DNA of 64,000 bases from Ruminococcus sp. (GTDB lineage Bacteria; Bacillota; Clostridia; Oscillospirales; Ruminococcaceae). Where the stretch lies: contig JAJQCE010000029.1 of the NCBI GenBank assembly GCA_021202895.1, positions 9,664 to 73,663 of the forward strand, in the 5' to 3' direction. Each line of letters opens with the position of its first letter. The first letter of the stretch is position 1. This document shows, piece after piece, positions 3,917 through 44,523 of the stretch. Under the pieces are notes generated by a model. It was not told the origin of the DNA. It was given only the letters and a program-made list of their open reading frames with translations, and did not search any database. The translations under genes and the position numbers were made by a program.

Positions 3917-3945
3917 AACGAAATACCCCTTCTGTATGATTAAAT

Positions 3946-4890
3946 CTATCTTTCAGCCCGCATGGGGTTATTCAAAAAATCATCATAGGAAAATCTGATT
4001 CCATCCTCAAGCTCTGTCTTGTAAGTCCACCCAAGAGCCTTTGCTTTGCCAACGTCCAGAAGCTTTCTTGGCGTTCCATTAGGCTTGCTTGTATCCCAAC
4101 GAATTTCACCTGTGTATCCGACTACTTTAGCTACAAGCTCTGTCAGCTCTTTAATTGTCAGTTCCTTGCCCGTTCCTGCATTTACTGTTTCATTGCCACT
4201 GTAATTGTTCATCAGAAACACGCATAAATTCGCCAGGTCGTCAACATACAAAAACTCACGAAGCGGAGAACCATCGCCCCAACAGGTTACATATTCTTTG
4301 CCCTCAAGCTTTGCCTCGTGGAAACGGCGGATAAGTGCAGGAAGCACGTGAGAATGTGTAGGGTGATAATTGTCGTTCGGGCCGTAAAGATTAGTCGGCA
4401 TCACCGATATGTAATCTGTACCATATTGACGATTAAGAAATTCGCAATATTTAAGACCTGAGATTTTCGCCAGCGCATATGCTTCGTTCGTCTTTTCGAG
4501 CTCGCTTGTCAAAAGGCAGCTCTCCTTCATAGGCTGCGGAGCCATACGAGGATAGATGCAAGAAGAACCGAGAAATTCCAGCTTTTTGCAGCCGTTCTGC
4601 CATGCGGCATGAATAACATTCATCTCAAGAATCATATTGTCATACATAAAATCTGCAAGTGCGCTCTCATTTGCAACAATTCCGCCCACCTTTGCCGCCG
4701 CCAGGAACACATACTCAGGTTTTTCCTCAGCAAAGAACGCTTCAACAGCACTTTGCCTTGTAAGATCAAGCTCTTTGTGTGTACGGGTAATTATGTTGGC
4801 ATATCCTTGCCGCTCAAGCTCACGCACAATAGCGGAACCAACCATCCCCCGATGACCGGCAACATATATTTTTGCGTTCTTATTCATCAT
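3946..4890 (-). CDS. fcl: GDP-L-fucose synthase
   Basis: VAGHRGMVGSA, FLGSSCIYP, YALAK, PTNLYGPNDNY, WGDGSPLREFL. Confidence 0.95.
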   Translation of the reverse strand: MMNKNAKIYVAGHRGMVGSAIVRELERQGYANIITRTHKELDLTRQSAVEAFFAEEKPEYVFLAAAKVGGIVANESALADFMYDNMILEMNVIHAAWQNGCKKLEFLGSSCIYPRMAPQPMKESCLLTSELEKTNEAYALAKISGLKYCEFLNRQYGTDYISVMPTNLYGPNDNYHPTHSHVLPALIRRFHEAKLEGKEYVTCWGDGSPLREFLYVDDLANLCVFLMNNYSGNETVNAGTGKELTIKELTELVAKVVGYTGEIRWDTSKPNGTPRKLLDVGKAKALGWTYKTELEDGIRFSYDDFLNNPMRAER

Positions 4891-4945
4891 TATCTGATAA
4901 CTCCCTTTTTTCGAGATATTCTTACAAATTCCAGCAAATACGCTC

Positions 4946-5979
4946 TTAAGCCCTTTCCGCTTTCACTTTTTTCATGTCATGCTCAACCATAAGCTTAACT
5001 AGCTCTTCAAAGCTTGTCTTTACTGGATTCCAGCCAAGCTCTTTCTTTGCTTTAGTTGGATCTCCCCAAAGATTAACTACATCAGTCGGGCGGTAGAAAT
5101 CTGGACTAACCTCAACCAACACTTTTCCAGTCGCCTTGTCAATTCCCTTTTCATTCATCTCTTCACCTTGCCACTCAAGCTCGATTCCCACATAGCGGAA
5201 AGCAAGAGTTGCAAATTCCCTGACGGAATGCTGCTCACCAGTTGCAATTACAAAATCCTCAGGAGTATCATGCTGTAAAATAAGCCACATACACTCAACA
5301 TAGTCCTTGGCATAACCCCAGTCACGCAGCGAGGAGAGGTTGCCAAGATAAAGCTTGTCCTGCTTTCCCTGAGCAATTCTTGAAGCTGCAAGTGTAATCT
5401 TCCTTGTTACAAATGTTTCACCGCGTCTTTCAGATTCGTGATTGAAAAGAATACCCGAACAGCAAAACATATTGTACGCTTCTCTATATTCCTTGGTTAT
5501 CCAAAATCCATACTGCTTTGCAACTGCATAAGGGCTGTAAGGATGAAACGGCGTATTTTCATTCTGCGGCACTTCCTCAACCTTTCCATAAAGTTCTGAG
5601 GTAGATGCCTGATAAATTCTGCAGGTGTCCTTTAACCCAGTTAAACGAACCGCTTCTAAAATACGCAAAACACCTGTAGCATCAACATCCGCCGTAAATT
5701 CCGGCACATCAAAGCTTACCTGCACATGACTCTGTGCTGCAAGATTATATATTTCATCTGGGCGCACAGCTCCGATCACAGACACAAGGCTCATTGAATC
5801 GCCTAAATCTCCAAAATGAAGATGGAAATTCTCTGTACCCTCCAGGTGCGCTATACGCTCACGGTAATCTACAGACGACCGCCGAATGATGCCATGTACT
5901 CATATCCTTTTTCCAAAAGAAACTCCGCCAAAAATGAGCCGTCCTGTCCTGTGACACCTGTGATAAGCGCTTTTTTCAT
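4946..5979 (-). pseudogene. gmd: GDP-mannose 4,6-dehydratase with a 1-nt deletion near 5899
   Basis: ATG at 5979 gives [27 protein letters not shown], then GAG-TAC instead of GAG-GTA-CAT leads to TAG at 5869-5871; the other frame continues HGIIRRSS...YNLAAQSHV...QASTSELYG to the stop at 4946. Confidence 0.9.
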
Positions 5980-6218
5980 ATTTACCCTACTCTCTATTTA
6001 TTCATTATTGCTTTATAAGTCCTCTTCCCATATACGAAATAAGTGCTGAACGCTTAAGCGCAAAGCTTTTCATAATTAATCAAGTCAAGAAAAATATATT
6101 ACAAAAGTCTCTAAACACAATCAGCGTTTTATGTTTCAAATTTTTTATCCAGGCGCAGACAATCATCAATTTATATGCGAAATTCTGTTTTTGCGTTCCT
6201 AGATAATCCTACTATATC

Positions 6219-6247
6219 ATTATACCATACTTCACCCCTTGCGTCAA
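6219..6247 (-). promoter_or_regulatory. sigmaA promoter of the gmd-fcl-manC operon
   Basis: TTGACG-17 nt-TATAAT with TGn extension on the minus strand. Confidence 0.75.
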
Positions 6248-6431
6248 GTGGTGAATTTTAATTATTTACAATTCGGCAATTTGTAATATGAATTCTTAAC
6301 AATCTCAGCCGTAATTAGTCATATTGTGCAAAAATTGTCTGGTTATTTGCTGCAAAAAACGTCAGACTTTTTGTGTATATTAACGAATTTTTAATTAAAA
6401 ATAGAAAAAAGTGATTTTGTCCCCAATAAAA

Positions 6432-6455
6432 ATGCGGCATGATTTTTTGCCGCAT
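6432..6455 (-). terminator. Intrinsic terminator of the Y-family polymerase gene
   Basis: ATGCGGCA/TGCCGCAT 8-bp stem followed by TTTTATT on the minus strand. Confidence 0.65.
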
Positions 6456-6460
6456 CATTC

Positions 6461-7948
6461 TTATGCTCTGTGACCGCCGATTTGACGATTTCTGCTTGTT
6501 GCTGTCGCTCCCTTTTCCAAGCTTATGCCTTTTATTATTGAGTTTTTTCCAAATCTATTTTTTATTCCCGTAACAGCAGTCTGAAGCTGCTTTTCATGCT
6601 CTTTTTTTTGCTCAAGCTTTAGCTGAATATCAATGCCGCTGAATAAATCAAGCTGCATTACCTGATCATTTTTACTGCTTTCACAGACTGTATTTTCAGC
6701 AGACATTGTAATTCTTCTTATTAAAAGATTTTTATTCTCCACTTGCTTAAACAGCCTACACGCAGCCTTGGTTATTTCCATTGACGACGCAGTTTTAGTG
6801 CTGATTCCAATTGTTCCATGAAAATGCTTTGGGATTATCCTGCCGTACATATCCGCAACCGTTTCACCTTGATAGCTTATTTTTGGATTGCTTATATTTT
6901 CAACATCGTATCCTATTGTGAGTGTAAGCTTGTCTGTAACAAGCCTTTTCTCACTTAGCTCATATGCCAGAGCGTCCGCCATTTCCTTTACTATCAGCAG
7001 CGCTTTTTCATATTCGTAAGGCTCCTGAAGCACCTGACCTGATGAAATACTGCTGCTCTTTGCTTTGTATGACTTTATATCCGCTATTTCAGTCGGTTCA
7101 TAACCCCACGCATGGTCAATCAGCAGCTCGGCGTTTACTCCGAAAACTTTGTATAAATAATCTTCATATTTCAATGAAAATTCTGCTATATCTCCCATAG
7201 TGTAAAGTCCCATTTCCTCAAGCTTCTTTGAATATCCTCTGCCGATTCTCCAAAAATCTGTAAGAGGGCGGTGATTCCACAGCTCTTTGCGATAGCTATG
7301 CTCATCTAATTTCGCAATTCTCACACCATTTTCATCCGGCAGTCTGCGCTTTGCAACTATATCCATAGCCACCTTAGACAAATAAAGATTAGTTCCTATT
7401 CCGGCAGTGGCAGTAATTCCCGTTTGCTTTAAAATATCTTTGATAATTATCATTGCAAACTCCTGAGCACTTAAGCCATTTGCTAAAATATAGCCTGTTA
7501 TATCAATAAAAACCTCGTCAATCGAATAAACATGAATATCCTCCTCAGAAACATATTTGAGATATATTTTGTAAATTTCTGTGCTGTAATGTATATACAG
7601 TGCCATTCTTGGCACGGCGGCGATATAATCGGCTTCAAGCTCGCTGTGATTATAAAGCTCTTCAGCGTCAAAAGACTTACCTTCAAAGCTTTTGTCAGGT
7701 GTTTTTTCAAGGCGTTCACGATTTACATCTCTCATCTTCTGCACGACCTCAAACAGCCTTGCTCTTCCTCCTAATCCATATTGTTTCAAGGATGGCGAAA
7801 CTGCCAGACATATTGTCTTTTCAGTGCGGCTTGCATCAGCTACAACAAGATTAGTTTTCAGCGGATCAAGACCACGCTCAACGCACTCTACCGATGCGTA
7901 AAAGGATTTTAAATCTACAGCTAGATAAGTTCTCTCCACTCTCAACAC
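6461..7948 (-). CDS. Y-family (DinB/UmuC/ImpB-like) error-prone DNA polymerase
   Basis: AVDLKSFYASVEC, YSIDEVFID, TATAGIGTNLYLSKVAMD, FWRIGRG, C-terminal KNRFGKNSI. Confidence 0.93.
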   Translation of the reverse strand: MLRVERTYLAVDLKSFYASVECVERGLDPLKTNLVVADASRTEKTICLAVSPSLKQYGLGGRARLFEVVQKMRDVNRERLEKTPDKSFEGKSFDAEELYNHSELEADYIAAVPRMALYIHYSTEIYKIYLKYVSEEDIHVYSIDEVFIDITGYILANGLSAQEFAMIIIKDILKQTGITATAGIGTNLYLSKVAMDIVAKRRLPDENGVRIAKLDEHSYRKELWNHRPLTDFWRIGRGYSKKLEEMGLYTMGDIAEFSLKYEDYLYKVFGVNAELLIDHAWGYEPTEIADIKSYKAKSSSISSGQVLQEPYEYEKALLIVKEMADALAYELSEKRLVTDKLTLTIGYDVENISNPKISYQGETVADMYGRIIPKHFHGTIGISTKTASSMEITKAACRLFKQVENKNLLIRRITMSAENTVCESSKNDQVMQLDLFSGIDIQLKLEQKKEHEKQLQTAVTGIKNRFGKNSIIKGISLEKGATATSRNRQIGGHRA

Positions 7949-8013
7949 CCCTCTCGACGATATTTTCGCTTATACACTGCCGTTCTCTTACTGCTTTAAA
8001 ATTGCAGCTTAAA

Positions 8014-8066
8014 GAACATATGATTCCTTCTAATTCTATTATATCACGAACATATGATTCTTTCAA
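8014..8066 (-). promoter_or_regulatory. sigmaA promoter with two identical SOS-box-like 13-mers
   Basis: -35 TTGAAA (8061-8066), 17 nt, -10 TATAAT (8038-8043); GAACATATGATTC at 8014-8026 and 8048-8060. Confidence 0.75.
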
Positions 8067-8252
8067 GGGTTGAAAGAAACAAACGTGCTTATTTTACAAA
8101 AAATTCACAAAATTCATATTTGAGCTAAATTAGTTTTCCCCATCAGTTCAATTGTATTCAATGCACAAAAAAACACCTGCATATTTGCAAAAAGCAAATA
8201 ATACAGGTGTGCAATTTACGTTTTTTTAAAGTAAAGCTATCCTATGTGATTT

Positions 8253-8831
8253 TCAGATTTTCACAATAGTTCCCATCTGATTTCTTCCTGCGCCCACTGC
8301 GTTAGACTCATCTGTGTCAATGTGCATAGCTCTGACATAGCTTTCGCTCACGCGACATACTGTATCGCCTAAAATTGCGCTTCTGTTTTCCGAATCAATT
8401 TTAACTGCTACAATTTCACCGTTTGTAACTCCCAGCTCCTCAGCATCGGCAGGGGTAAGGTGGATATGACGCTTAGCTACGATAACGCCCTCTTTAACCT
8501 CGACCTCTCCGCAGGGTCCAACCAGCTTACAGGCTCCTGAGTCCTTAACATCTCCCGACTCTCTTACAGGAGCGGCAATTCCGATTGAACGAGCGTCTGT
8601 CGCTGAAAGCTCAATCTGATCAGCACTGCGGCAGGGTCCTAAAATCGATACGTTAGGCAGCTCCTTTTTAGGTCCTACAACGGTAACTCTTTCCTCACAG
8701 GCAAACTGTCCGGGCTGGGAAAGATCCTTCTTTTTAGTAAGCTCATGACCCTCACCGAAAAGCACTGCAAGTGTTTCCTTTGTTACGTGGACGTGTCTTG
8801 CGGACGTTTCAACAATAAATTCCTTTGACAT
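8253..8831 (-). CDS. pduL: Phosphate propanoyl/acetyltransferase PduL
   Basis: VETSARHVH, LSQPGQF, VIVAKRHIHL, MHIDTDE; RBS GAAAGGAAG before ATG 8831. Confidence 0.92.
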   Translation of the reverse strand: MSKEFIVETSARHVHVTKETLAVLFGEGHELTKKKDLSQPGQFACEERVTVVGPKKELPNVSILGPCRSADQIELSATDARSIGIAAPVRESGDVKDSGACKLVGPCGEVEVKEGVIVAKRHIHLTPADAEELGVTNGEIVAVKIDSENRSAILGDTVCRVSESYVRAMHIDTDESNAVGAGRNQMGTIVKI

Positions 8832-8993
8832 AAAATTTAACTTCCTTTCAAAAATTTTTTCATTGTCAGCAAATTTCACCGCACAAAAATCACAAAGTGC
8901 GATAAACATCTAACAGGACATCTCTATAAGACACTGCCAAAGTAATGCAGTGACAATTTGCCGCAGATGTGCGTCAAGAGATGCCCTATATAT

Positions 8994-9022
8994 ATTTTAC
9001 TACTATTTCGGACTAAAATCAA
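8994..9022 (-). promoter_or_regulatory. Probable sigmaA promoter of pduL
   Basis: TTGATT-17 nt-TAAAAT. Confidence 0.5.
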
Positions 9023-9040
9023 GTCCTTTTTCACATTTTT

Positions 9041-9317
9041 TTACTTTGCAGCCTTGTTTTTTTCCATGCTTAAGATTTCATACTTACGCTTTGTAGCCAT
9101 GCCTCCTCTGATATGACGTTCCTGCTTATTGATTTCAAGAAGCTTTTCAACCTCCTTGTAAAGCTCAGGCGAAAGCTCGGGCAGCTTTTCACGAATATCT
9201 TTATGTACCGTTGGATTTTGAAATACCAAACTGCTTTGCAGCTTTTCTGACGGTTGCGTCATTTCTTACCATATACTCACCGAGCATTATAGGTCGGCAC
9301 TTATCAGTAAGACTCAT
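9041..9317 (-). pseudogene. spoIIID: Stage III sporulation transcription factor SpoIIID with a +1 frameshift at 9211-9212
   Basis: Frame 1 ends ATVRKAAKQFGISKS-NGT*; frame 2 continues TVHKDIREKL...ERHIRGGMATKRKY; removing one A gives a 91-aa SpoIIID. Confidence 0.88.
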
Positions 9318-9417
9318 AATTTCACCCCAAAACATATATTTTTTGTGTAATTTAAATATATGCTTTGAGGCATAAGAATATGACAAAAAAGCGGCAGATA
9401 TGCTCTGCCGCTGAATA

Positions 9418-10701
9418 TCAGCTTGATTTAGCCTCAAGTCGTTTGGATTTATCTCCTCTGACAACCATAGGCTGTTGATTATTATTAACTGTTTCCTGCG
9501 TTACAACAACTTTGGTAATTTCAAAATCAGACGGTGCTTCAAACATAATATCAGTGAGGATATGCTCGACAATTGCTCTAAGACCTCTTGCTCCTGTTTT
9601 CTGTTCAATAGCCTTTTGTGCAACGGCTTTAAGCGCATCGTCTGTCATTTCAAACTCTATACCGTCCATTGTAAAAAGCTTTGTATACTGCTTTATCAAG
9701 GAGTTTTTAGGCTCGGTCAAAATTCTGCAAAGCGCCGTTTCGTCAAGCTCGTCAAGAACTGTTATAAGCGGAAGTCTGCCGACAAGCTCAGGCACAAGTC
9801 CGTACTTGATAAGGTCGTGAGGAACAACCTTTTTCATAATATCATGCTCCTCGCCCTGCTTAACCACGTTTGCGCCAAAGCCCATTGCTGATGATTCCGT
9901 ACGCTTTTTAATAATAGACTCAAGTCCTTCAAATGCGCCGCCGCAGATGAAAAGAATGTCCTTAGTATTTATCTGAATAAATTCCTGATGAGGATACTTT
10001 CTGCCGCCCTGCGGGGGAACATTTGAAACTGTACCCTCTACAATTTTCAAAAGTGCCTGCTGAACTCCCTCGCCGCTGACATCGCGGGTGATGGAGGTAT
10101 TTTCCGACTTTCTTGCAATCTTATCAATTTCATCAATATAGATTATTCCCTTTTCAGCCGCTTCAACATCATAATCGGCAGCCTGAATTAAGCGCGTCAA
10201 AACGTTTTCCACATCATCGCCTACATAGCCTGCTTCTGTAAGAGTTGTAGCGTCTGCAATTGCGAAAGGTACATTCAAAAGATTTGCAAGCGTTTGTGCA
10301 AGCAAAGTTTTTCCTGTTCCTGTAGGACCTAGCAAAAGCACATTACTCTTTTGGATTTCAACATCGTTCTCATTTTCTTCATCATAGTGAGAAAGAACCC
10401 TCTTATAATGATTATAAACTGCAACAGACAGTGCGATTTTAGCCTCGTCCTGACCGATAATATATTCGTCGAGCACATTTTTTATCTCAATCGGCGTATG
10501 CAGAGTTATACCGTACTCTTCCTCATCTACAGCAGCACCAAGCTCTGTTTCCTCGGTGAGCATAGTCTGACGGCTCAGGAGATTATAGCAAAGCGTAACA
10601 CATTCATCGCAGATATGATTACTATCCGCTGAAAAAATATATTTTACCTTTGTTTCGGGCTTGCCGCAAAAATCACATTTTTTTATTGTTTCATTAGCCA
10701 T
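9418..10701 (-). CDS. clpX: ATP-dependent Clp protease ATP-binding subunit
   Basis: CDFCGK..ICDECV zinc finger, [26 protein letters not shown]. Confidence 0.97.
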
Positions 10702-35346: not shown

Positions 35347-35379
35347 TTATTTCATCCTTGCCTTATACAAAATTTATTT

Positions 35380-35417
35380 CCTACTAAAATTATAGCACTT
35401 TATTTTTCGTTTGTCAA
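35380..35417 (-). promoter_or_regulatory. sigmaA promoter of the hem/siroheme operon with Rrf2-type box
   Basis: TTGACA (35412-35417)-17-TATAAT (35389-35394); CCTAC-TAAAATT-ATAGC at 35380-35396. Confidence 0.75.
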
Positions 35418-35460
35418 TATAAAAGCAGTCCGACACATTTAAAACATCAACTGCGAAGGG

Positions 35461-35898
35461 TTATGCTTTTGTCGCAACCTTTTTTACCTCATGCACTAAT
35501 GTATCAACCTGTTGAGCGTTATTAAACACGTTTAGAGAAAAACGGTACTGTACCTTGTTCGAGAGCATCAAGCGTTTGGTGGGCAAGTGTGGCGCAGTGC
35601 AGATAAAATCAAAACCATCCGAAAACGATATATTCAAAAGCTCCGCCGTATTGCTTAATCCCTTTTACAGCCATTTTGAGTGCCAAGGTAGAGTTTGAAG
35701 TAAAAATTGTATTTTCAGTCAATGCTCCATACATCTCAGCTGCGGACTCACGCACGTTAAATACCTATCCAGCAGTCATAACAGAAAGAGCATGTCCACC
35801 CTTTCTAAGGATTACCGCCATATTTTGTTATAGCTTGATTTACTGCAGCACGAACAGATGCAGAGGAATGCTATAGTCGAATTGTCAAAGTTAATCAA
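35461..35898 (-). pseudogene. Heavily deleted cysteine desulfurase-family (class V aminotransferase) relic
   Basis: RBS + TTG LINFDNST; SVRAAVNQAITKYGGNP; GGHALSVMTAG*VFNVRESAAEMYG..ENTIFTSNST.AL.MAVKG; FDFICTAPH; LEQGTVP; NVFNNAQQVDTLVHEVKKV; about 440 bp, several frameshifts and stops. Confidence 0.75.
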
Positions 35899-35984
35899 TA
35901 CCTTTCACCTCTTTTTTTACAACAAATGTGATTAATAAATACAATTATCTTTATTATAATATGAAAAAGAGGGAATTTAAGTTA

Positions 35985-36031
35985 GAAAAACGACTGCCGC
36001 ATTTTTCTTTTACAATGCAGCAATCGTTTTC
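35985..36031 (-). terminator. Probable terminator of the ASST operon
   Basis: Imperfect inverted repeat GAAAAACGA..GCATT / AATGC..TCGTTTTC. Confidence 0.5.
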
Positions 36032-36049
36032 TATGTTTAGAGACGGTTT

Positions 36050-37549
36050 TTAGTTATCCTCAAGATCACTCTTGTTTACGCTTGCAACGCAAAAATCAAT
36101 TCTTTCGTCCTTATCCTTGCTTGAATTGCCGCCGCCTGTCATACCAACATTCTTGTTGGGATCTATTCCATCGACTGCGGTAACCTCGCCAGTTCCCTCG
36201 CCCTTTGATGCTCCAGGAACTCTAAACGTCGAAACGTCTATAGGCTCAATCGATGTTTCAACAGGCTTTTCAAGCTGAGGAATCCACTCGTATGGAACAC
36301 GGTATGCACGATAAACCATGTTGTTTCTAACCTTGCCGCCTATTTTGTTGAAATAAGGATTGATATACTCCCACACAATTTCATGCTCAGGTGTGACCTC
36401 AATAAGACGACCGTCCGACCCTTCGGTGATTAGCGTGTTGCCGTTAGGAAGACGCTGCGCTGCACTTATGTACGAGCTGTAGAACTTTGAAGCGTCACTA
36501 AACAAGAAATGTCCAGCCTCTAAGGGAGTGTACTGCCATGTGATTTCAAGCGTCACAGGATTAAACTGCAGCACTCTCGAGTAGTCACGGTGAGCGTTGT
36601 TTACGCCCGTTGCAGATGCAGGATTAGGAACGCCGTAGCCTCCCTCTCCGCCGTTGTCGAATACTAACAGGTCGCCTTCCCCGGGTAAGCCCTTAGGTAT
36701 CATGTGAAGGTGATGCTGACCAATTATCCATCCAAGCTTTCTTGTAGCCTCGTTTTCGTTAAAATCAGGACCTAAACGCCATACTATCTTACCTGTTTCA
36801 CGGTCAATAATTGCTAAGATATTTGAATTTCTAGCATCAAAGATGATATTATTAGGATTAAATCTCTCGTCACCCGCATCATACCACTTGTTTTCACCAA
36901 GTGTAGCAAAATTGTTTATGTGCATCCAATCTCCGCCCGCATCACCGTGAACTCCTGGATTGCGGTAGAGTGTGTTCTTTGCAGCTTCGTCAAAGCCAAG
37001 CTCGTCAAAGTGATCGCTTGCTTTCCAACTCCAAAGGATGTTGCCCTCCCAGTCAACCTCAATAATCTTGTCGTCAATAAGACGCTTATCTGAGATGTTG
37101 TGGTTGTAGACATTTTCATGAGTTAGAATCAACGTCTTTCCGCTGTCTATTTTAGGCTCGCCGCCTGGATAATAGTATCCTACGGTATTACCCTCACGCT
37201 GAAAATCGTGATGCTGTCTTGCCATATACTGTGGCTCTTCACCAGGATCCGCTACAAGCTCGGTTTTATCAAACTTCCAGACGATGTGTCCATCCCAGTC
37301 AACCTGAACTAAGTCAAGCTGGTCTTGATAGCCTGCCTTTGCAGTACGTCTGCCAGTAGAGCCAAAAACGTATCCGCCAGGGAGAATCTTGTTCGGAAAA
37401 CCTCCCAAGCCTGCCCAAAGCTTAACCTCGTTGCCATTCATGTCTACAAGCAGTGCACCCTTTGTAGATGGAAAAATCGTGTAACCACTGTATGTTTTGT
37501 CTTTGTTAAAAATTGTTGTCCCCGTAGGGAATACGCTAGGATAGCCCAT
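36050..37549 (-). CDS. Aryl-sulfate sulfotransferase family protein (ASST-1), cytoplasmic, with C-terminal Cys tail
   Basis: Beta-propeller-type repeats (EVDWEGNILWSW, TGKIVWRLG), QHHD, DWMHIN, DARN, GQHH, VFDNG, SSAQRLPNGNTLITEG-type motif; no signal peptide. Confidence 0.85.
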   Translation of the reverse strand: MGYPSVFPTGTTIFNKDKTYSGYTIFPSTKGALLVDMNGNEVKLWAGLGGFPNKILPGGYVFGSTGRRTAKAGYQDQLDLVQVDWDGHIVWKFDKTELVADPGEEPQYMARQHHDFQREGNTVGYYYPGGEPKIDSGKTLILTHENVYNHNISDKRLIDDKIIEVDWEGNILWSWKASDHFDELGFDEAAKNTLYRNPGVHGDAGGDWMHINNFATLGENKWYDAGDERFNPNNIIFDARNSNILAIIDRETGKIVWRLGPDFNENEATRKLGWIIGQHHLHMIPKGLPGEGDLLVFDNGGEGGYGVPNPASATGVNNAHRDYSRVLQFNPVTLEITWQYTPLEAGHFLFSDASKFYSSYISAAQRLPNGNTLITEGSDGRLIEVTPEHEIVWEYINPYFNKIGGKVRNNMVYRAYRVPYEWIPQLEKPVETSIEPIDVSTFRVPGASKGEGTGEVTAVDGIDPNKNVGMTGGGNSSKDKDERIDFCVASVNKSDLEDN

Positions 37550-37550
37550 G

Positions 37551-38933
37551 TTACTTTACCTCCGTTACTTCGCCCTCACCAATGACACTCACTGTGCCGG
37601 GCACTCTAAATGTTTCAATATCGACTGGTTTAATGTCAACCTCTTCAGGTCTTGAAAGCTGCGGAACCCACTCATAAGGAACTCTGTAAGCTCTGAAGAG
37701 AAAGTTGGTCTTTTTTGTTTTATCTGAAAAATGCGTTTCAAAATAGGGATTTATGTATTCCCATACTATTTCATGCTCTGCTGTAACCTCTAACACTCTT
37801 CCATCTGAACCCTCAGTAATAAGAGTGTTGCCGTTTGGAAGCCGCTGTGCTGAGCTTACGTACGAGCTGAAAAATTTCGTTGGGTCTGTGAATGTGTTGA
37901 ATCCAGCCTCTTCAGGTGTATACTGCCAAGTTATATCAAGAGTTACGGGGTTAAACTGCAAAACCCTTGAATAGTTTCTCTGATAATGATTAATTCCCGT
38001 TTCAGAGTTTACCGTCGGCACACCATAGCCAGATGCTCCTCCATTATCGAAAACGAGAATGTCACCTTCGCCAGGCAGACCTTTTTGAATAAGGTGCAGA
38101 TGATGCTGTCCCATTATCTGTCCTAACTTCTTTAAAGCTTCGTTTTCGCTGAATTCAGGTCCCAATCTCCATACAACTTTACCTGTTTTCTTCTCAATAA
38201 TACCAAGTATATTTGCCTGTCTTGCATCAAAAAGAATATTCTCAGGATTAAAGCGTTCATCGCCGTTATCATACCACTTGTTCTCACCAAGAATTGAAAT
38301 GTTATTAAACGTAAGCCAGTCGTGCCTTCCGCTTCCTCTTCCAGGCGTACGATAAATAGTATTCTTTGCTGCCTCATCAAAGCCAAGCTCGTCAAAGTGT
38401 TCCGACGCTTTCCAGCTCCATACAATATTACCCTGCCAATCAACTTCAATTATCTTTTCGTCATTGATTGTGTGTGGTGAAATTTTAGGATCATTTGTGC
38501 GTTCGTGGGTAATAATGATTGTGTTCTCGCCCTCCGTTTTAGGAAGACTGTTCGGTGAAAAATACCCTAACGGTAAGCTTTCTCTCTGCCAATCATGCGA
38601 TTGCTTTGCAACATAAACCTCACCATCATCCGTTTGGATTTTTGTGTTTTTGTCAAACCTCCAAACTACATTTCCGTTCCAATCCACCTGCAAAAGGTCG
38701 GCACGCTCAAGAAATTCAAGCTTATCTCTGTACTTATTTGATGATGTCACAAGATAACCGCCAGGAAGAATTCTGTCAGGAAAGCCAAGTGTTCCTGTCC
38801 ATGTTTTAACTTCTCTTCCATTCATATCGATAAGCTGTGCGCCTTTTGCACTGTGAAAAATTGTATAACCGCTGTATGCCTTACTTTTATTATAAAGCGT
38901 CACACCAGTCGGGTAAACTGTTGGATAGCCCAT
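37551..38933 (-). CDS. Aryl-sulfate sulfotransferase family protein (ASST-2), cytoplasmic paralogue
   Basis: Colinear with ASST-1 (e.g. SEHFDELGFDEAAKN, RVLQFNPVTL, QRLPNGNTLITEGSDGR); DWLTFN in place of DWMHIN; no Cys. Confidence 0.83.
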   Translation of the reverse strand: MGYPTVYPTGVTLYNKSKAYSGYTIFHSAKGAQLIDMNGREVKTWTGTLGFPDRILPGGYLVTSSNKYRDKLEFLERADLLQVDWNGNVVWRFDKNTKIQTDDGEVYVAKQSHDWQRESLPLGYFSPNSLPKTEGENTIIITHERTNDPKISPHTINDEKIIEVDWQGNIVWSWKASEHFDELGFDEAAKNTIYRTPGRGSGRHDWLTFNNISILGENKWYDNGDERFNPENILFDARQANILGIIEKKTGKVVWRLGPEFSENEALKKLGQIMGQHHLHLIQKGLPGEGDILVFDNGGASGYGVPTVNSETGINHYQRNYSRVLQFNPVTLDITWQYTPEEAGFNTFTDPTKFFSSYVSSAQRLPNGNTLITEGSDGRVLEVTAEHEIVWEYINPYFETHFSDKTKKTNFLFRAYRVPYEWVPQLSRPEEVDIKPVDIETFRVPGTVSVIGEGEVTEVK

Positions 38934-38951: not shown

Positions 38952-39482
38952 TTAAAATGTTATTTTAATATCTTCGACTCTGTCTGAAAATACCTTTTGT
39001 GCCGACACAATGCCGTTATTGCCTAGATTTCTAACAAGTATAAGGCTGCCAATTTCGATAGCTTCATACGACACAAGCGGAAGTATTCCATTGTCAAGTA
39101 ATATCTCCTTTGTAGCACTGTCATAACCCTTTGCCAATATAGCTGCACTTCCTGAAGCTATAAGAAAAGACGCTGTATCATGGGTTAAGTCTGTAATTTT
39201 GTGATCTACGCTTATAATTCCCGAAAGTACTGTGTTTCTAATTCTAAACCCGTCAATGGTTCTTTTAAGAAAATCAATCCTTTCTCTAAGGAAAGATAGA
39301 TTTACAATCGGGCAGCTGTCGGTTTGTGCCGCAAGCTCACCAAGCTTGTAAGGCTTTGCCTTTTGCTCGAACTCTTCTCTCTCCTCAGCCGTTTTAGGCA
39401 GCTTGTCAGATATGACATAAAGCGATGCATCTGTAGAAATATCACGTCTGTTATAGGAGAGCTCTGCATATTTGTATTCCAA
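38952..39482 (-). CDS. Hypothetical protein; C-terminal half resembles an aconitase/LeuD swivel domain
   Basis: TTG start after GGAGG; GSAAILAKGY...LLDNGILPL resembles G..AVIA.SF.RI...N..N.G.LPL. Confidence 0.55.
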   Translation of the reverse strand: MEYKYAELSYNRRDISTDASLYVISDKLPKTAEEREEFEQKAKPYKLGELAAQTDSCPIVNLSFLRERIDFLKRTIDGFRIRNTVLSGIISVDHKITDLTHDTASFLIASGSAAILAKGYDSATKEILLDNGILPLVSYEAIEIGSLILVRNLGNNGIVSAQKVFSDRVEDIKITF

Positions 39483-39502: not shown

Positions 39503-40549
39503 TTATGATAGCTCTACCATAATCTTGTCGCTGTCCTCACCAAATGCTAGTACAGCTGCCGAGGTGTCTATGAATTGACGTACATCATACTCAGTATCAT
39601 ATTTGCCGTTTTCATATGCCCATGCGGCAACATCCTCAAGCTTTTGCGCACCCTCTTCAGTGAAGCCTAGGTTGAATTGCAGATTATTCCAGTTGGACTG
39701 GAAATCATCCTCTTCTATACCAAATTTGCTTGCAATATCAGGCGTCACCTCATCAAGATGCTCGGTTATGTACTCAACACTCTCTTCAAGCGCAACAAGG
39801 TAATCGCCGAGAAGCTCGGTATTATCATCAAGAAAATCTGTTGTGGTCATAAGATAGCTTCTTGTTGCTATGCCAATTTCATCGGATGTCGCTACAAGAA
39901 CCATTCCGTACTCCTCATAGCGTTCAGCTGTTGCTCCGCTTGCTATAACTGCTCCAACCTCTCCTTTACTAACAAGCGAAAGGGATGACGACACGTCTGT
40001 TGAGTTTATATTTTCAACCTTATCCGGATCTAAGCCAACATAAGTTAGCGCCAGCCAGTTTTGATATTCTGAAACTGTACCTATATTCGTAATTATTCCG
40101 GGGCTGTCATAGAGTCCCTCAAGATTATCTGCATATTCCTCGGCTACGTAAAGTCCTCCAGTGGTATCTCTGCCAGTGCGGCCGCCTGTAAGCTCTGAGA
40201 AAGTAACCAGGTTTGTGTCATCCAGTGTATTTCCTATGCGGTTTACAAGTGCAAAATCAGCTAAAAGACCTGTATCTGCCGTGCCGTTTTGAACAGCATC
40301 CATTGTGTTTATACTGGCAGCGTACTCCGCAGTAGTAAGCTCTATTCCATACTTTTCAAAGATACCCTGCTCACTGCCTATGTATGTGGCATACTGATCC
40401 GCCTGACCTGTCATGATAGCTACGCGAAGCGTTGTAAGCTCGGTTCCATCCTCTGCTGTTGAAGTGTCGTCAGAATCACCGCATCCGACAAATGCCGTAA
40501 CTGAAAGTGACGATGCTACTAAAAACGCTAATATTTTCTTTATTTTCAT
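39503..40549 (-). CDS. ABC transporter substrate-binding lipoprotein, SsuA/TauA-like
   Basis: Lipobox FVGC, LRVAIM, IGSEQGIFEKYGIELT, family-typical size and position next to an SsuC-type permease. Confidence 0.8.
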   Translation of the reverse strand: MKIKKILAFLVASSLSVTAFVGCGDSDDTSTAEDGTELTTLRVAIMTGQADQYATYIGSEQGIFEKYGIELTTAEYAASINTMDAVQNGTADTGLLADFALVNRIGNTLDDTNLVTFSELTGGRTGRDTTGGLYVAEEYADNLEGLYDSPGIITNIGTVSEYQNWLALTYVGLDPDKVENINSTDVSSSLSLVSKGEVGAVIASGATAERYEEYGMVLVATSDEIGIATRSYLMTTTDFLDDNTELLGDYLVALEESVEYITEHLDEVTPDIASKFGIEEDDFQSNWNNLQFNLGFTEEGAQKLEDVAAWAYENGKYDTEYDVRQFIDTSAAVLAFGEDSDKIMVELS

Positions 40550-40565
40550 TGTAATCAACTCCTAA

Positions 40566-41360
40566 TTATTTAAGTCCGTAATGACCAAGTTTCTTTCTTC
40601 CTATAAACTGTAAAAGTCTGTCTGCTATAAATCCCAGTAGTGCAAGCGTTACTATTCCTGCAAATGCCCAGCTTGTTCTGTAGTAAAGCTTCGAGCTTTG
40701 GATTAGATAGCCAAGTCCATCGCTTCCGACAAGCATTTCTGCCGCTATAACGGTAAGTATTGATGAACTAAGTCCTAAGCGTATTCCTGTGAATATATTT
40801 GCCACCGCTGAGGGAAGAATTACCGTGAAGAAGACTCTTGCCTTCTTAGCTCCCATACAAGAAGCTGCCTCAACAAGCGACTGATCTGTAGATACAACAC
40901 CAGCTATAGTGTTTACAAAAATTGCAAAGAACGACGCATAGAATATAAGTGCAACTTTAGACTCTTCTCCTACGCCAAACCACATCAGAAAAAGTGTGGT
41001 AAGTGCGATTGCAGGAACGAATCTAAAAAAGCTTAAAATCGGCTCTACCAGGTATCTCACAGGCTTGAAGCTTCCGACTAAAAGTCCAAGCGGTACGCCA
41101 AAAACTACTGCTAGTGCCCAGCCCTTTGCAACTCTCGAGATACTTGCTACAAAATCTGCCCAGAGAGTGCCATCCTGAACTAGAATTATAAGACTGTCGA
41201 TGGTTTCCTTAGGCGAAGGCAGGAAATAGTCGTCATACGCAAGCGAGCCTAACCCCCAAACGACCAGAATTATCGCCCATGAAATTACTCCGCATTTAAA
41301 AATTCTCTGTCCTATATTTTCTGAGGATCTGCTCTTCTGTTTTTTTTCTTCTTTTGCCAT
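40566..41360 (-). CDS. ABC transporter permease, SsuC/TauC-like
   Basis: LPSP, SISRV..GW, FRFVPAIAL, GVGEESK, EAASCMGA, IAAEMLVGSDGLG. Confidence 0.9.
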   Translation of the reverse strand: MAKEEKKQKSRSSENIGQRIFKCGVISWAIILVVWGLGSLAYDDYFLPSPKETIDSLIILVQDGTLWADFVASISRVAKGWALAVVFGVPLGLLVGSFKPVRYLVEPILSFFRFVPAIALTTLFLMWFGVGEESKVALIFYASFFAIFVNTIAGVVSTDQSLVEAASCMGAKKARVFFTVILPSAVANIFTGIRLGLSSSILTVIAAEMLVGSDGLGYLIQSSKLYYRTSWAFAGIVTLALLGFIADRLLQFIGRKKLGHYGLK

Positions 41361-41373
41361 AACGCATTCCTCC

Positions 41374-42441
41374 TTAAATGTAGTAAATTGTGCTGTCATC
41401 GATAAAGCTGTTTGATACAACCTCGGTTTTGTCACCATCTATCGTGTACAGCTTTTTGATAAGCACCTTGACTTCGTCGCCCTTCTTAAGCCTTGTGGCG
41501 TTAAGGTCGTATCTTCCCGTGACAGACATGCTGTCTATGTTTACTTTGACCTCAAATGCGTTCCCTCTAAAGAACACATCCTCTACTATGCCATTCTCCA
41601 TAGAGCTTTCGTATTGATGATGCCCATTGTCCGTAAACTTGTTTATCTCAATAAACTCAGGACGAATTACCGCCGAAGCTTTGCTGTCCGAACCAGAAAA
41701 GCCCTTTAATCTGCCATAATCGGTGATTATCGCCGATTGTCCGATAAACTGAGCGACAAATGGTGTTTTCGGGTTAAGATAAATCTCAGCGGGATTTCCA
41801 ACCTGTTCGACCTTACCAAGGTTTGTTATGACAATTTCATCCGCCACCTCGATAGCCTCATCTTGATCGTGGGTTACAAAGATGCTTGTAATTCCGATTT
41901 TATCAATCGTCTCTCTAAGCCATGTTCTTAGCTCTTTTCTTACCTTTGCATCAATCGCCGCAAACGGTTCGTCCAAAAGAAGAAGCTCAGGCTCGGGAGC
42001 TAAGGCTCTTGCTAGTGCAATTCTCTGACGCTGACCGCCGCTAAGCTGCTCGGGATAACGTTTTTCAAGTCCCGGAAGACCAACAAGATCGAGCAACTCG
42101 GCAACACGATTTCTAATTGTTTCTTTATCCTTTTTTTGAACCTTTAGACCGTAAGCTATGTTATTGTACACATTCATATAAGGAAACAGCGCATAGTTTT
42201 GAAATACAAAGCCTATTCCTCTCTCGCTTGAAGGAAGATCGTTGACGACCTTGCCGCCGATTGAAATATCTCCGCTGTCCTGATGTTCAAGTCCCGCTAT
42301 CATTCTAAGGATAGTTGTTTTGCCGCTTCCTGATGGTCCCAGCAAGCCGATTAATTTTCCCTTCTCGATGCCAAAGGTAACGTCACTTGATGCCTTGCAA
42401 TCGCCAAATGTCTTGTTTACATTGTTTAACTCAATATACAT
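41374..42441 (-). CDS. cysA: ABC ATPase of the CysA (sulfate/thiosulfate) type
   Basis: GPSGSGKT, ERGIGFVFQNYALF, LSGGQRQR, LLLDEPFAAIDAKVRKELRTWLR, C-terminal TOBE-like region. Confidence 0.85.
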   Translation of the reverse strand: MYIELNNVNKTFGDCKASSDVTFGIEKGKLIGLLGPSGSGKTTILRMIAGLEHQDSGDISIGGKVVNDLPSSERGIGFVFQNYALFPYMNVYNNIAYGLKVQKKDKETIRNRVAELLDLVGLPGLEKRYPEQLSGGQRQRIALARALAPEPELLLLDEPFAAIDAKVRKELRTWLRETIDKIGITSIFVTHDQDEAIEVADEIVITNLGKVEQVGNPAEIYLNPKTPFVAQFIGQSAIITDYGRLKGFSGSDSKASAVIRPEFIEINKFTDNGHHQYESSMENGIVEDVFFRGNAFEVKVNIDSMSVTGRYDLNATRLKKGDEVKVLIKKLYTIDGDKTEVVSNSFIDDSTIYYI

Positions 42442-42564
42442 AATAACCAACTCCGAATTATTTTACTGTTGTTAGTTGTTTCAAATCTGATCTTAAGTCA
42501 ACATCGCTTGCTTTTAATAAAGATCTGTACCATAAAGTTTGACCCCCTTTTAATTCATACCTTT

Positions 42565-42621
42565 TCGATATGATTAGTATGTTTATAATTATAAACCCAT
42601 TTTTCCGATATGTCAATAGGG
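42565..42621 (-). promoter_or_regulatory. sigmaA consensus promoter of the cysA-ssuCA-ASST operon with two Rrf2-type boxes
   Basis: TTGACA (42611-42616)-17-TATAAT (42588-42593); boxes at 42605-42621 and 42565-42581. Confidence 0.8.
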
Positions 42622-42763: not shown

Positions 42764-42789
42764 AAAAGTATAGTTAGGAGATGAAAAGC

Positions 42790-43104
42790 ATGATTACTGA
42801 GCTTACAACCAGCACATTTGACGAAATAACCTCAACCGACAAACCTGTGGTGATAGAATTTTACTCGCCGACCTGTGTTCACTGCAAGAGAATGGAGCCA
42901 GGACTTAACGAGGTTGCCGACGAGCAAGAAAACGACGCAGTTATTACCAGATGTGACATCACAACCTCGCCTGAGCTTGCGCAGCGCTATGACATCACTG
43001 CCGTTCCGACAACGCTCTTTATAAAAAACGGTGAAATTAAGGACAAGCTTGTGGGATTTACACATAAGCTGATAATTTCCCAGGGTATTGAAAAGCTAAA
43101 GTGA
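42790..43104 (+). CDS. Thioredoxin family protein (CVHC)
   Basis: EFYSPTCVHCKRM, cis-Pro VPT, GEIKDKLVG; start 42790 or 42781. Confidence 0.9.
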   Translation: MITELTTSTFDEITSTDKPVVIEFYSPTCVHCKRMEPGLNEVADEQENDAVITRCDITTSPELAQRYDITAVPTTLFIKNGEIKDKLVGFTHKLIISQGIEKLK

Positions 43105-43158: not shown

Positions 43159-44058
43159 TTAAAGACTTCTAAGATAATTCTCAGCGCTTGTTACGGCATT
43201 TGCTCCGTCAGCGGCTGCGGTTATCACCTGTCTAAGGGGTGTGGTTCTCACATCTCCCGCAGCAAACAAGCCCTTGGCATCGGTAGCTCCGTCCTCACCT
43301 GCAATGATATATCCGAAGCTGTCAAGTGAACAAACTCCTTTTAAAAGCTCGGTGTTCGGCAGACTTCCAAGTGCGCAGAAAACACCGTCTATCTTTAGCG
43401 TGTCAATAGAGCCGTTTCGGTTTAACACGAGCTCTTCAGCTTTGTCGCCTCCGTTTACCTTAGTCACAGTAGTGTTTAGTATAAACTCAATGTTTTCAAC
43501 AGCATTCACCTGTGCTTGTAAGCTTTTGTTTGCCCTAAATTCATCTCTTCTGTGGATTAGATAGACCTTCTTAGCAATCTTTGATAGGTAAGCTGCATCT
43601 CCAAGCGCAGTATCTCCGCCACCTATGACGGCTACAATCTTGTTTTGATAGAAAGCTCCGTCACATACCGCACAGTAGGATACACACTGTTTTTCACTCC
43701 CCTCAACGCCAAGTCTGCGGTAGGATGTTCCCGCAGCGTAGATAATAGCCTTAGCTTCAAGTACCCTTCCGTCTGAAAAGGTTACCGCCCAATAGTCACT
43801 TTCCTTTGCTATTGCTTTAGCCTCGCCGTCATAGAACTCAGTTCCCAAAGCTAAAGCATGCTCACGAAAACCCTCGCCTAAATCATATCCTGATACTCCG
43901 TAAAGCCCAGGATAGTTTTCTACACGCTCACTTACCGAAATCTGTCCCGTACCCATATAGTCTTTTTCGACCACCACGGCGTTTAGCATAGCGCGCTTAG
44001 CGTAAATTGCAGCCGTAAGTCCAGCAGGTCCGCTGCCTATTATAATTATGTCATACAT
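43159..44058 (-). CDS. trxB: Thioredoxin-disulfide reductase
   Basis: GSGPAGLTAA, VSYCAVCDG, GGGDTA, HRRDEFRA, FAAGDV. Confidence 0.93.
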   Translation of the reverse strand: MYDIIIIGSGPAGLTAAIYAKRAMLNAVVVEKDYMGTGQISVSERVENYPGLYGVSGYDLGEGFREHALALGTEFYDGEAKAIAKESDYWAVTFSDGRVLEAKAIIYAAGTSYRRLGVEGSEKQCVSYCAVCDGAFYQNKIVAVIGGGDTALGDAAYLSKIAKKVYLIHRRDEFRANKSLQAQVNAVENIEFILNTTVTKVNGGDKAEELVLNRNGSIDTLKIDGVFCALGSLPNTELLKGVCSLDSFGYIIAGEDGATDAKGLFAAGDVRTTPLRQVITAAADGANAVTSAENYLRSL

Positions 44059-44070
44059 AACAATTCCTCC

Positions 44071-44523
44071 TCAAATATAGTACATAGGTTCGCTTGCATT
44101 ATTTTCAAGCTCCTTCTCATAACGCTCGGCAAGATCTGCCACCGTAACCGACATAGCGCAGTCCGACATATACCTTTCTATTTTGTTCCACAAAAGCTCA
44201 TTTATCACGTCAGAGAAACCATTGTTTTCGTTTCCGATCTCGGGAACATCGTTGTTTAAAAGCGACGATTCAAGAGCGTTTATCACTTCATTAAGCGTAA
44301 TATCCTCTGCCCTTTTAGAGAGAATATACCCGCCTCCTGAGCCTTTTTGTCCCTTAATTAGATGTGAATGGCGAAGTGACGAGAGTATCTGCTCGAGGTA
44401 CTTTTCAGAAATACCCTGCCTTCCTGAAATGCTGATAACAGTGACCGTTTTTCCATTCCGTGCATTGATTGCAATGTCAGTAATTGCCAAAATTCCACAC
44501 TCAACCTTTGTTGAAATTTTCAT
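44071..44523 (-). CDS. Rrf2 family transcriptional regulator (CymR-like, no IscR Cys triad)
   Basis: MKISTK, ISEKYLEQIL..L, KGSGGGYIL, ITLNEVINALE, LW. Confidence 0.92.
   Translation of the reverse strand: MKISTKVECGILAITDIAINARNGKTVTVISISGRQGISEKYLEQILSSLRHSHLIKGQKGSGGGYILSKRAEDITLNEVINALESSLLNNDVPEIGNENNGFSDVINELLWNKIERYMSDCAMSVTVADLAERYEKELENNASEPMYYI

Follow-up and report, generated by a model that had tools for sequence, protein, structure and literature searches.

The window analysed here, a 64,000-nt stretch of contig JAJQCE010000029.1 of Ruminococcus sp. (assembly GCA_021202895.1, positions 9,664 to 73,663 of the forward strand), carries two adjoining genes for proteins of the aryl-sulfate sulfotransferase (ASST) family, called ASST-2 and ASST-1 (Table 1). 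The proteins are 63% identical from end to end, with 6 gap positions, and both are well over the Pfam cut-offs for PF05935 and PF14269 (for ASST-2, 73.5 bits against a cut-off of 24.2, and 65.8 bits against a cut-off of 27). The sequence DWLTFN of ASST-2 aligns with DWMHIN of ASST-1, and QSHD with QHHD, and the GQHH and DAR motifs are common to both. ASST-1 has one Cys residue (Cys487), located within a 40-residue C-terminal extension, and ASST-2 ends (...GEVTEVK) at the point where this tail would start. An earlier reading of the DNA, referred to below as the original prediction, had described the alignment of the paralogues, the motif swaps, the positions of the swapped Thr and His codons and the retained GQHH and DAR motifs, and all proved exact to the base. 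It had also described ASST-2 as free of Cys and 1 nt distant from ASST-1, and this is borne out by a Cys count of zero and by the single base (37550) that lies between stop and start. The same layout of the junction, with GGAGG inside ASST-2 and a 1-nt gap, is seen in an orthologous locus (L003). The AlphaFold2 (AF2) model of ASST-2 has a mean predicted local distance difference test score (pLDDT) of 93 and a predicted template modelling score of 0.93, and its top Foldseek matches are Cpz4 (9KF6/9KF4) and E. coli ASST (3ETS), both with a probability of 1.00, so that ASST-2 is predicted to be an ASST-type beta-propeller with an intact fold.

Table 1. Features of the ASST locus, in window coordinates (ORF, open reading frame; ABC, ATP-binding cassette).
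Feature	Position	Strand	Basis or remark
ASST-2, ASST-family beta-propeller paralogue, 460 aa, site incomplete, no Cys or C-terminal tail	37551-38933	minus	ORF, Pfam, AF2
ASST-1, canonical enzyme, 499 aa, full His constellation and Cys tail	36050-37549	minus	ORF, Pfam
Coupling junction	37550-37563	minus	GGAGG (37559-37563) in last ASST-2 codons, TAA stop, base 37550, ASST-1 ATG
ASST-2 Thr208 codon (ACG)	38310-38312	minus	column of ASST-1 His210
ASST-1 His210 codon (CAC)	36920-36922	minus	
ASST-2 Ser112 codon	38598-38600	minus	in place of subfamily-conserved His (ASST-1 His113)
ASST-2 His204 codon (RHDW)	38322-38324	minus	in place of ASST-1 Gly206; candidate compensating His
ASST-2 His277 codon (GQHH)	38103-38105	minus	kept sulfo-histidine equivalent
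ASST-2 His113 codon	38595-38597	minus	kept
ASST-2 Asn210 codon	38304-38306	minus	kept
ASST-2 Arg238 codon	38220-38222	minus	kept
ASST-1 Cys487 codon	36089-36091	minus	
176-aa protein gene	38952-39482	minus	one invariant Cys (Cys57, AAQxxSCP)
Sulfonate-type ABC importer	39503-42450	minus	NMT1/SsuA-like binding protein 39503-40558, permease 40566-41438, ATPase 41374-42450
Sigma-70-type promoter ahead of ABC/176-aa/ASST-2/ASST-1 string	42588-42616	minus	12/12 consensus; consensus match only
Thioredoxin	42781-43104	plus	
Thioredoxin-reductase-like flavoprotein	43159-44058	minus	
Rrf2 regulator	44071-44523	minus	

The active site of E. coli AssT consists of His252, His356, Asn358, Arg374 and Thr501 around the sulfo-histidine His436, and the enzyme is a homodimer (PMC13426309). 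Searches of the PDB by phmmer with ASST-1 or ASST-2 matched only Cpz4 and did not reach E. coli AssT, and a 64-sequence family profile alone matched it only in part. Residue correspondences were taken from an hhalign alignment of the CFT073 protein to this profile (probability 97%, E 4e-11, 297 columns), and the numbering was checked on mature CFT073 AssT, where the six residues occupy the positions given. Four of them have kept counterparts in both paralogues: His436 (His279 in ASST-1, His277 in ASST-2), Arg374 (Arg240, Arg238), Asn358 (Asn212, Asn210) and His252 (His114, His113). The counterpart of His356, the proposed proton shuttle, is His210 in ASST-1 and is lost in ASST-2, where the column is occupied by Thr208; among the five literature-defined His, Asn and Arg residues, this is the only one that ASST-2 lacks. 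The column of Thr251 holds His113 in ASST-1 and has lost its His in ASST-2 (Ser112), and the position of Arg352 holds Gly206 in ASST-1 and His204 in ASST-2. The original prediction had named the His of DWxHxN and that of QHHD as catalytic. The first is indeed the equivalent of His356, but the second aligns with Thr251, so that the change from QHHD to QSHD, as judged from the alignment, removes a His specific to the subfamily and spares the neighbouring equivalent of His252.

In ASTB of D. hafniense, the phenolic hydroxyl lies beside His283, the proposed proton donor of the first half-reaction and acceptor of the second (bioRxiv 10.64898/2026.10.08.757636). The common His-x-Asn motif (His283-x-Asn285 and His356-x-Asn358), rather than an alignment, suggests that His283 corresponds to His356 of E. 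coli. In ASST-2 the sulfuryl-binding half of the site thus appears to be kept, and the residue that acts on leaving group or acceptor to be missing. Of the 119 closest database homologues, 117 have a His at the ASST-1 His210 column, as do all 86 canonical ORFs of genome loci and all 79 of a further set of metagenome loci, and the Thr208 substitution appears far from a chance event. The subfamily constellation comprises Gln75, His113, His114, His144, Asp160, Asp207, His210, Asn212, Arg240 and His279 (ASST-1 numbering), and at the same columns ASST-2 has Leu, Ser, His, His, Glu, Asp, Thr, Asn, Arg and His (signature LSHHE.DTNR.H). Besides the whole Cys tail, it has therefore also lost Gln75, His113 and Asp160 near the site. 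Gly206 is invariant in the 86 canonical sequences and is a His in all three known ASST-2 orthologues; compensation by this residue, His204 of RHDW, is possible.

Canonical members of the subfamily are about 495 aa long, with N-termini that align mutually from the first residues, and have a C-terminal tail of about 40 aa whose Cys is near-invariant, in motifs such as (D/N)FC(V/T)A or A(L/F)CV. Their genes are single and adjoin an NMT1/SsuA-type ABC importer, often with thioredoxin, siroheme or sulfite-reductase genes close by. ASST-2 shares this setting, with both the importer and a thioredoxin nearby, but departs from the subfamily in two features, the full constellation and the Cys tail. In several canonical members (Serratia, Brenneria, Cetobacterium, Clostridiales VE202-15 and Ca. 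Merdenecus) a thioredoxin domain with a CxxC motif is fused after the Cys tail (L074 3182-5026; L086 6001-7809; L091 6001-7803; L095 and L096 6001-7794; L097 6001-7809). Such fusions give Rosetta-stone support for a functional link between tail Cys and thioredoxin. In the reductases of adenylyl sulfate and 3′-phosphoadenylyl sulfate (PAPS), CysH, a Cys in the C-terminal tail forms an S-sulfocysteine intermediate, from which sulfite is released by thioredoxin. CysH serves as a working analogy for ASST-1, with its single tail Cys, dedicated thioredoxin, nearby sulfite reductase or siroheme genes and the fusions of its relatives, although fold and donor are unrelated and ASST-2 itself has neither tail nor Cys. 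The family would represent a cytoplasmic branch of the PAPS-independent aryl-sulfate sulfotransferases. It occurs in only 4 of 401 genomes of the same class, too sparsely for a study of pairs, but a profile search for Cys-tailed ASST-like proteins returned thousands of protein clusters, and such proteins are common in gut anaerobes. A literature search found no paper on this subfamily or its function.

One check suggested with the original prediction was whether H-to-T paralogues recur beside Cys-tailed ones. ASST ORFs were taken from 92 loci (the window region, 80 genome loci and 11 contigs) and scored at the signature columns. All single-ASST loci of this set are complete in both the His set and the tail Cys, and the 79 further metagenome loci are all single-gene and canonical; two of their ORFs are without the tail Cys, both cut by a contig end. 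A His-less member is present in 10 of 10 tandem loci and in none of about 160 single-gene loci (Fisher p ~1e-12 for the first 7/7 tandem against 0/163 single-gene loci). The tandem loci are the window (= L103), L003, L098, L010/L011, L012/L013, L048 (Treponema primitia ZAS-10), L067, L183, L184 and L185. A profile search seeded with His-less proteins added at least 22 more 90%-identity clusters, all of one His-less type (F75, N/H113, S/N160, F/Y207, A/G210; hereafter F-type) and mostly from spirochaetes and Synergistaceae; four of these are without the sulfo-His too (H279N). The three cases that were looked up (L183, L184 and L185) were again in tandem with a His-bearing copy. The association holds only inside the Cys-tailed subfamily, and as a family-wide rule it fails for two more distant members (P0122, L101 1943-3415; P0126, L102 4206-5603). 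These are 44-47% identical, have Tyr in place of His356 and Ser in place of Asp160, and are encoded by single genes adjoining DUF1329 lipoprotein or TRAP transporter genes; they may be a different enzyme type.

The other pairs differ from that of the window in the distribution of the tail Cys. In L010, L012, L048, L067 and L184 it is the His-less copy that keeps the Cys tail, and the His-bearing partner is without the tail Cys, either by point substitution (...DDDYVVTNNNK) or by truncation. In the spirochaete locus L185 (277-1791, 1795-3468), the upstream copy lacks both His210 and the sulfo-His (H279N) and keeps an SNFCV tail, and the downstream copy, its His residues complete, has no tail Cys and is fused at its C-terminus to a thioredoxin domain. 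Of the two His-bearing copies in L183, the one next to the His-less gene lacks the canonical motif and has a Cys in a different tail sequence, and the other has none. This Synergistaceae locus (4055-9560) comprises a His-less Cys-tailed gene followed by two His-bearing ASST genes, with a second NMT1-type binding protein gene between. The invariance of the tail Cys in single-gene loci suggests that it is part of the reaction; if so, neither member of a complementary pair would be sufficient alone, and the tail would work on the site of the other polypeptide. The complementary loss of His and Cys would therefore imply cooperation between subunits. The expectation that H-to-T paralogues would recur beside Cys-tailed ones was thus upheld in part: His-less copies occur only in tandem, favouring a heteromer, but in the other pairs the Cys tail belongs to the His-less copy, and it is the His-bearing partner that is without the canonical tail Cys. 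ASST-2 is the only one of the His-less lineages that has also lost the tail, and it is paired with a complete enzyme. At the 158 positions conserved in at least 95% of the 86 canonical proteins, His-bearing partners have one change each, His-less copies have 5-9, and ASST-2 has 22.

The conserved positions also bear on the origins of the His-less copies. In a comparison of three lineages (ASST-2, the L010 copy and the F-type clade) over these 158 positions, Gln75, Asp160 and His210 were found to be changed in all three (0.04 triple overlaps are expected by chance), and His113, His144 and Asp207 in two of the three. In a maximum likelihood tree built without those columns the three lineages stand apart: ASST-2 lies next to a canonical protein (L004), the L010 copy is sister to its own partner, and the F-type copies and their partners form two parallel clades. 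This tree favours three independent origins. The residue states of ASST-2 are distinct (L75, E160, D/N207, T/N210, with H144 kept), and arguably it took its own route. The L010 His-less copy (5361-6854; partner 3883-5340) is 79% identical to its partner and 55-63% to F-type proteins, and it shares N113, N144, S160, F207 and P278 with the distant F-type clade, representing either a striking convergence or gene conversion that spared selected sites. No positions relaxed in all tail-less proteins, which might mark a surface for docking the tail in cis, were found. One Treponema primitia ZAS-2 protein (P0290, 498 aa) has S, N and N in place of Gln75, His144 and Asp160, and keeps Asp207, His210 and the tail Cys; it is possibly an intermediate state.

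ASST-2 orthologues were found in two further loci, L003 and L098, and the three are 82-86% identical. The closest database relative (P0002, 82%) is from an assembly with the same gene order. The L098 protein (86%) has DWLTFN, and the L003 copy NWLNIN, so that residue 208 is T in both the window and L098 proteins, and N in that of L003; QSHD, His204, GQHH and the absence of both tail and Cys are common to all three. Values of dN/dS (the ratio of nonsynonymous to synonymous substitution rates) for ASST-2 are 0.07 (dS 1.1) and 0.03, and that of ASST-1 is 0.035 in the sole ASST-1 comparison free of saturation; ASST-1 orthologues are 81-91% identical. The stem of the ASST-2 clade is long (0.43-0.62 substitutions per site) and its tips are short, and almost all other internal branches are 0.28 or less, with one other clade at 0.47. 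The long stem and short tips indicate that rapid change gave way to constraint. Of the positions conserved in at least 90% of the 119 nearest homologues, about 35 are different in ASST-2, and its 22 changes at the more strictly conserved positions include R111K, G206H, R68Y and three Tyr-to-Phe substitutions. The clade is rare: among 241 million metagenome records, a protein more than 64% identical to ASST-2 was found only in the window's own contig. The matching contig, L103, is 100% identical over ASST-2 and belongs to a gut metagenome co-assembly of the European ground squirrel; among named relatives, metagenome-assembled genomes of Ruminococcus and Oscillospiraceae come closest to its proteins. 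The suggestion that the substitution could be private to this strain, and thus drift, is excluded by the three orthologues with conserved synteny and the low dN/dS values, and ASST-2 is evidently under purifying selection.

On balance, ASST-2 is given an even chance of being a pseudoenzyme-like paralogue, disabled in catalysis and retained to serve ASST-1 as an accessory subunit. It would be inactive on aryl sulfates, would bind ASST-1, and would contribute to its stability, activation or regulation. A simple sequence of events could account for both kinds of pair. The enzyme would be an oligomer, in which the long tail allows its Cys to reach the active site of a neighbouring subunit. After a duplication, one of the active sites would die, leaving a single live site served by two redundant tails, either of which may go. 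Loss of the tail from the live subunit would give the complementary pairs (His+ Cys- with His- Cys+), and loss from the dead subunit would give the pair of the window (His+ Cys+ with His- Cys-). The original prediction had offered a binding partner as one option, beside action on a different substrate class and use of the nearby His of RHDW; recurrence only in tandem favours the first, but the heteromer itself is an inference.

Dead paralogues kept by selection as partners of an active copy are known from the trypanosomatid 'prozymes' of S-adenosylmethionine decarboxylase and deoxyhypusine synthase, which form heteromers with the active copy (PMC5201418, PMC3663545). ASST-2 resembles them in the loss of a catalytic residue with the fold kept, in purifying selection and conservation across species, and in obligate co-occurrence with an active paralogue. 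The prozymes are eukaryotic and belong to unrelated enzymes, and for ASST-2 a complex and an activating effect are only presumed. If confirmed, ASST-2 would add an example from bacterial sulfur metabolism to the short list of dead-paralogue partner subunits. The live/dead pairs can be seen as a natural dissection of the mechanism, indicating that one polypeptide can supply the tail Cys and another the histidine site. They would imply an oligomer with a trans-acting tail and tie thioredoxin to the reaction, and ASST-2, with a dead site and no tail, would be the extreme case. The annotation 'aryl-sulfate sulfotransferase' is probably wrong for ASST-2, and is doubtful for the subfamily as a whole.

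Comparison with characterised proteins places ASST-2 among the PAPS-independent ASSTs (E. coli CFT073 AssT, 3ELQ/3ETS; D. hafniense ASTB; Bacteroides BvASST), with which it has in common PF05935/PF14269 and the six-bladed propeller. The similarity to E. coli AssT is remote (hhalign, 24% over 297 columns), with the equivalent of His356 lost and the other four residues retained. ASST-2 apparently has no N-terminal beta-sandwich, and with no Cys it can form no Dsb-dependent disulfide; its N-terminus (MGYPTVYPTG) aligns with those of cytoplasmic-type homologues. The genomic context is sulfur assimilation and thioredoxin here, and dsbL/dsbI there. The closest solved structure is Cpz4 of Streptomyces caprazamycin biosynthesis (9KF4/9KF6; sequence E 4e-5, Foldseek E 2e-16, template modelling score 0.57). 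Cpz4 is of similar size, cytoplasmic and propeller only, as ASST-2 appears to be, but it is 16% identical and belongs to a natural-product pathway. It has neither a Cys tail nor a thioredoxin context, and no live/dead pairing is known for it.

Several observations weigh against ASST-2 as a disabled partner subunit. Some catalysis might survive without this His: the Tyr-bearing distant relatives P0122 and P0126 exist as single genes, and absence of the His alone is therefore no proof of inactivity. The E. coli dimer is not directly transferable, as the alignment starts at E. coli residue 175 and the N-terminal beta-sandwich is apparently absent here. ASST-1 is a normal member of the canonical clade without sign of co-adaptation and, since single copies suffice in about 160 other loci, it should need no partner. 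Strictly trans-acting tails would make a heterodimer of ASST-1 and ASST-2 dead. A single origin of the His-less copies is not rejected by approximately unbiased tests (p 0.06-0.33; 0.064 for all His-less copies as one clade, 0.33 for ASST-2 with the F-type, 0.09 for the L010 copy with the F-type). Lastly, the 22 conserved-site changes (against 5-9 in other His-less copies), the conserved His204 and the Cys-bearing 176-aa gene could equally point to a new function.

The neighbourhood of the two genes bears on this last point. The gene order thioredoxin, reductase, regulator, ABC importer, 176-aa gene, ASST-2 and ASST-1 is the same in three assemblies (window, L003 and L098), and ASST-2 always lies directly upstream of ASST-1. 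Pattern matching found no terminator-like site between the genes of the string that follows the predicted promoter. The 176-aa protein has no match in Pfam, NCBIfam or, by sequence, the PDB, and only five database relatives. Those of 65% and 70% identity are encoded directly upstream of ASST-2, and a 73% relative lies on a 1.2-kb contig. Across 97 loci and the looked-up contigs of three informative homologues, the gene has an ASST gene as its neighbour only in loci with ASST-2, and was probably gained together with it.

The main rival reading, although rather doubtful, is that ASST-2 is a neofunctionalised enzyme or relay, acting alone or with the co-acquired 176-aa protein. Its sulfo-His pocket is retained, and it might use His204 or no general acid. 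The S-sulfocysteine of the ASST-1 tail, or another donor whose leaving group is good, might hand over the sulfuryl group to it; alternatively, it might be a second station that docks a sulfonated Cys, of the tail or of the 176-aa protein, for attack by thioredoxin. The equivalents of His436, Arg374, Asn358 and His252 are kept in all three orthologues, as is the change to His at the otherwise invariant Gly206; the 22 fixed changes were followed by strong constraint; and the 176-aa gene, with its invariant Cys57, adjoins an ASST gene only in the company of ASST-2. However, the lost His is the residue beside the phenolic oxygen in both half-reactions, and position 208, T twice and N once among the three orthologues, has no fixed new catalytic residue. 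At an overall identity of 82-86%, six retained pocket residues are statistically unremarkable. The Cys motif of the 176-aa protein recurs in a 40%-identical homologue that is encoded in an unrelated context, adjoining queuosine genes, so that the Cys is not an adaptation to ASST-2, and the AF2 model of the 176-aa protein, made from only 5 sequences, is unusable (pLDDT 49).

A non-enzymatic role of ASST-2 in ligand binding or regulation, with no productive complex with ASST-1, is unlikely; it might act as a buffer or sensor of sulfate esters, or as a poison subunit that titrates ASST-1. Such a role would fit the retention of the sulfuryl-binding half of the pocket with loss of the leaving-group half, and, if the tail were only trans-acting, an ASST-1/ASST-2 dimer would be inactive and ASST-2 would be a negative regulator. 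Predicted co-transcription and the coupling-type junction would, however, give constant and roughly equimolar synthesis, unusual for a regulator; no DNA-binding or signalling domain was found in ASST-2 by Pfam; and the other tandem pairs resemble obligate two-part enzymes, not regulator pairs.

A further, quite improbable view is that the 'dead' sites are not dead, and that cleavage of the sulfate ester and release of sulfite are split between two stations. The live site would load the tail Cys from an aryl sulfate via the sulfo-His, and the remodelled site, with its aryl half filled or removed and its sulfuryl pocket kept, would dock the S-sulfocysteine for thioredoxin. ASST-2 would then be the second station, working with the ASST-1 tail or with the 176-aa protein as a detachable carrier, and the whole would be a previously undescribed multi-subunit sulfate-ester reductase. 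Decay of a duplicate, with loss of the His as neutral drift, is very improbable: the long stem, many conserved-site substitutions and tail loss would fit it, but three diverged assemblies have the 460-aa frame unbroken, dN/dS values of 0.03-0.07 go with short tips, the model is of high confidence (pLDDT 93) and the operon position is conserved.

Downstream of ASST-1, about 700 nt without an ORF separate the gene from hemA (35347-36049), and a 12/12 consensus promoter lies in this gap on the minus strand (35417-35389). The siroheme genes that come after ASST-1 in L098 are oppositely oriented, and are therefore outside the ASST operon.

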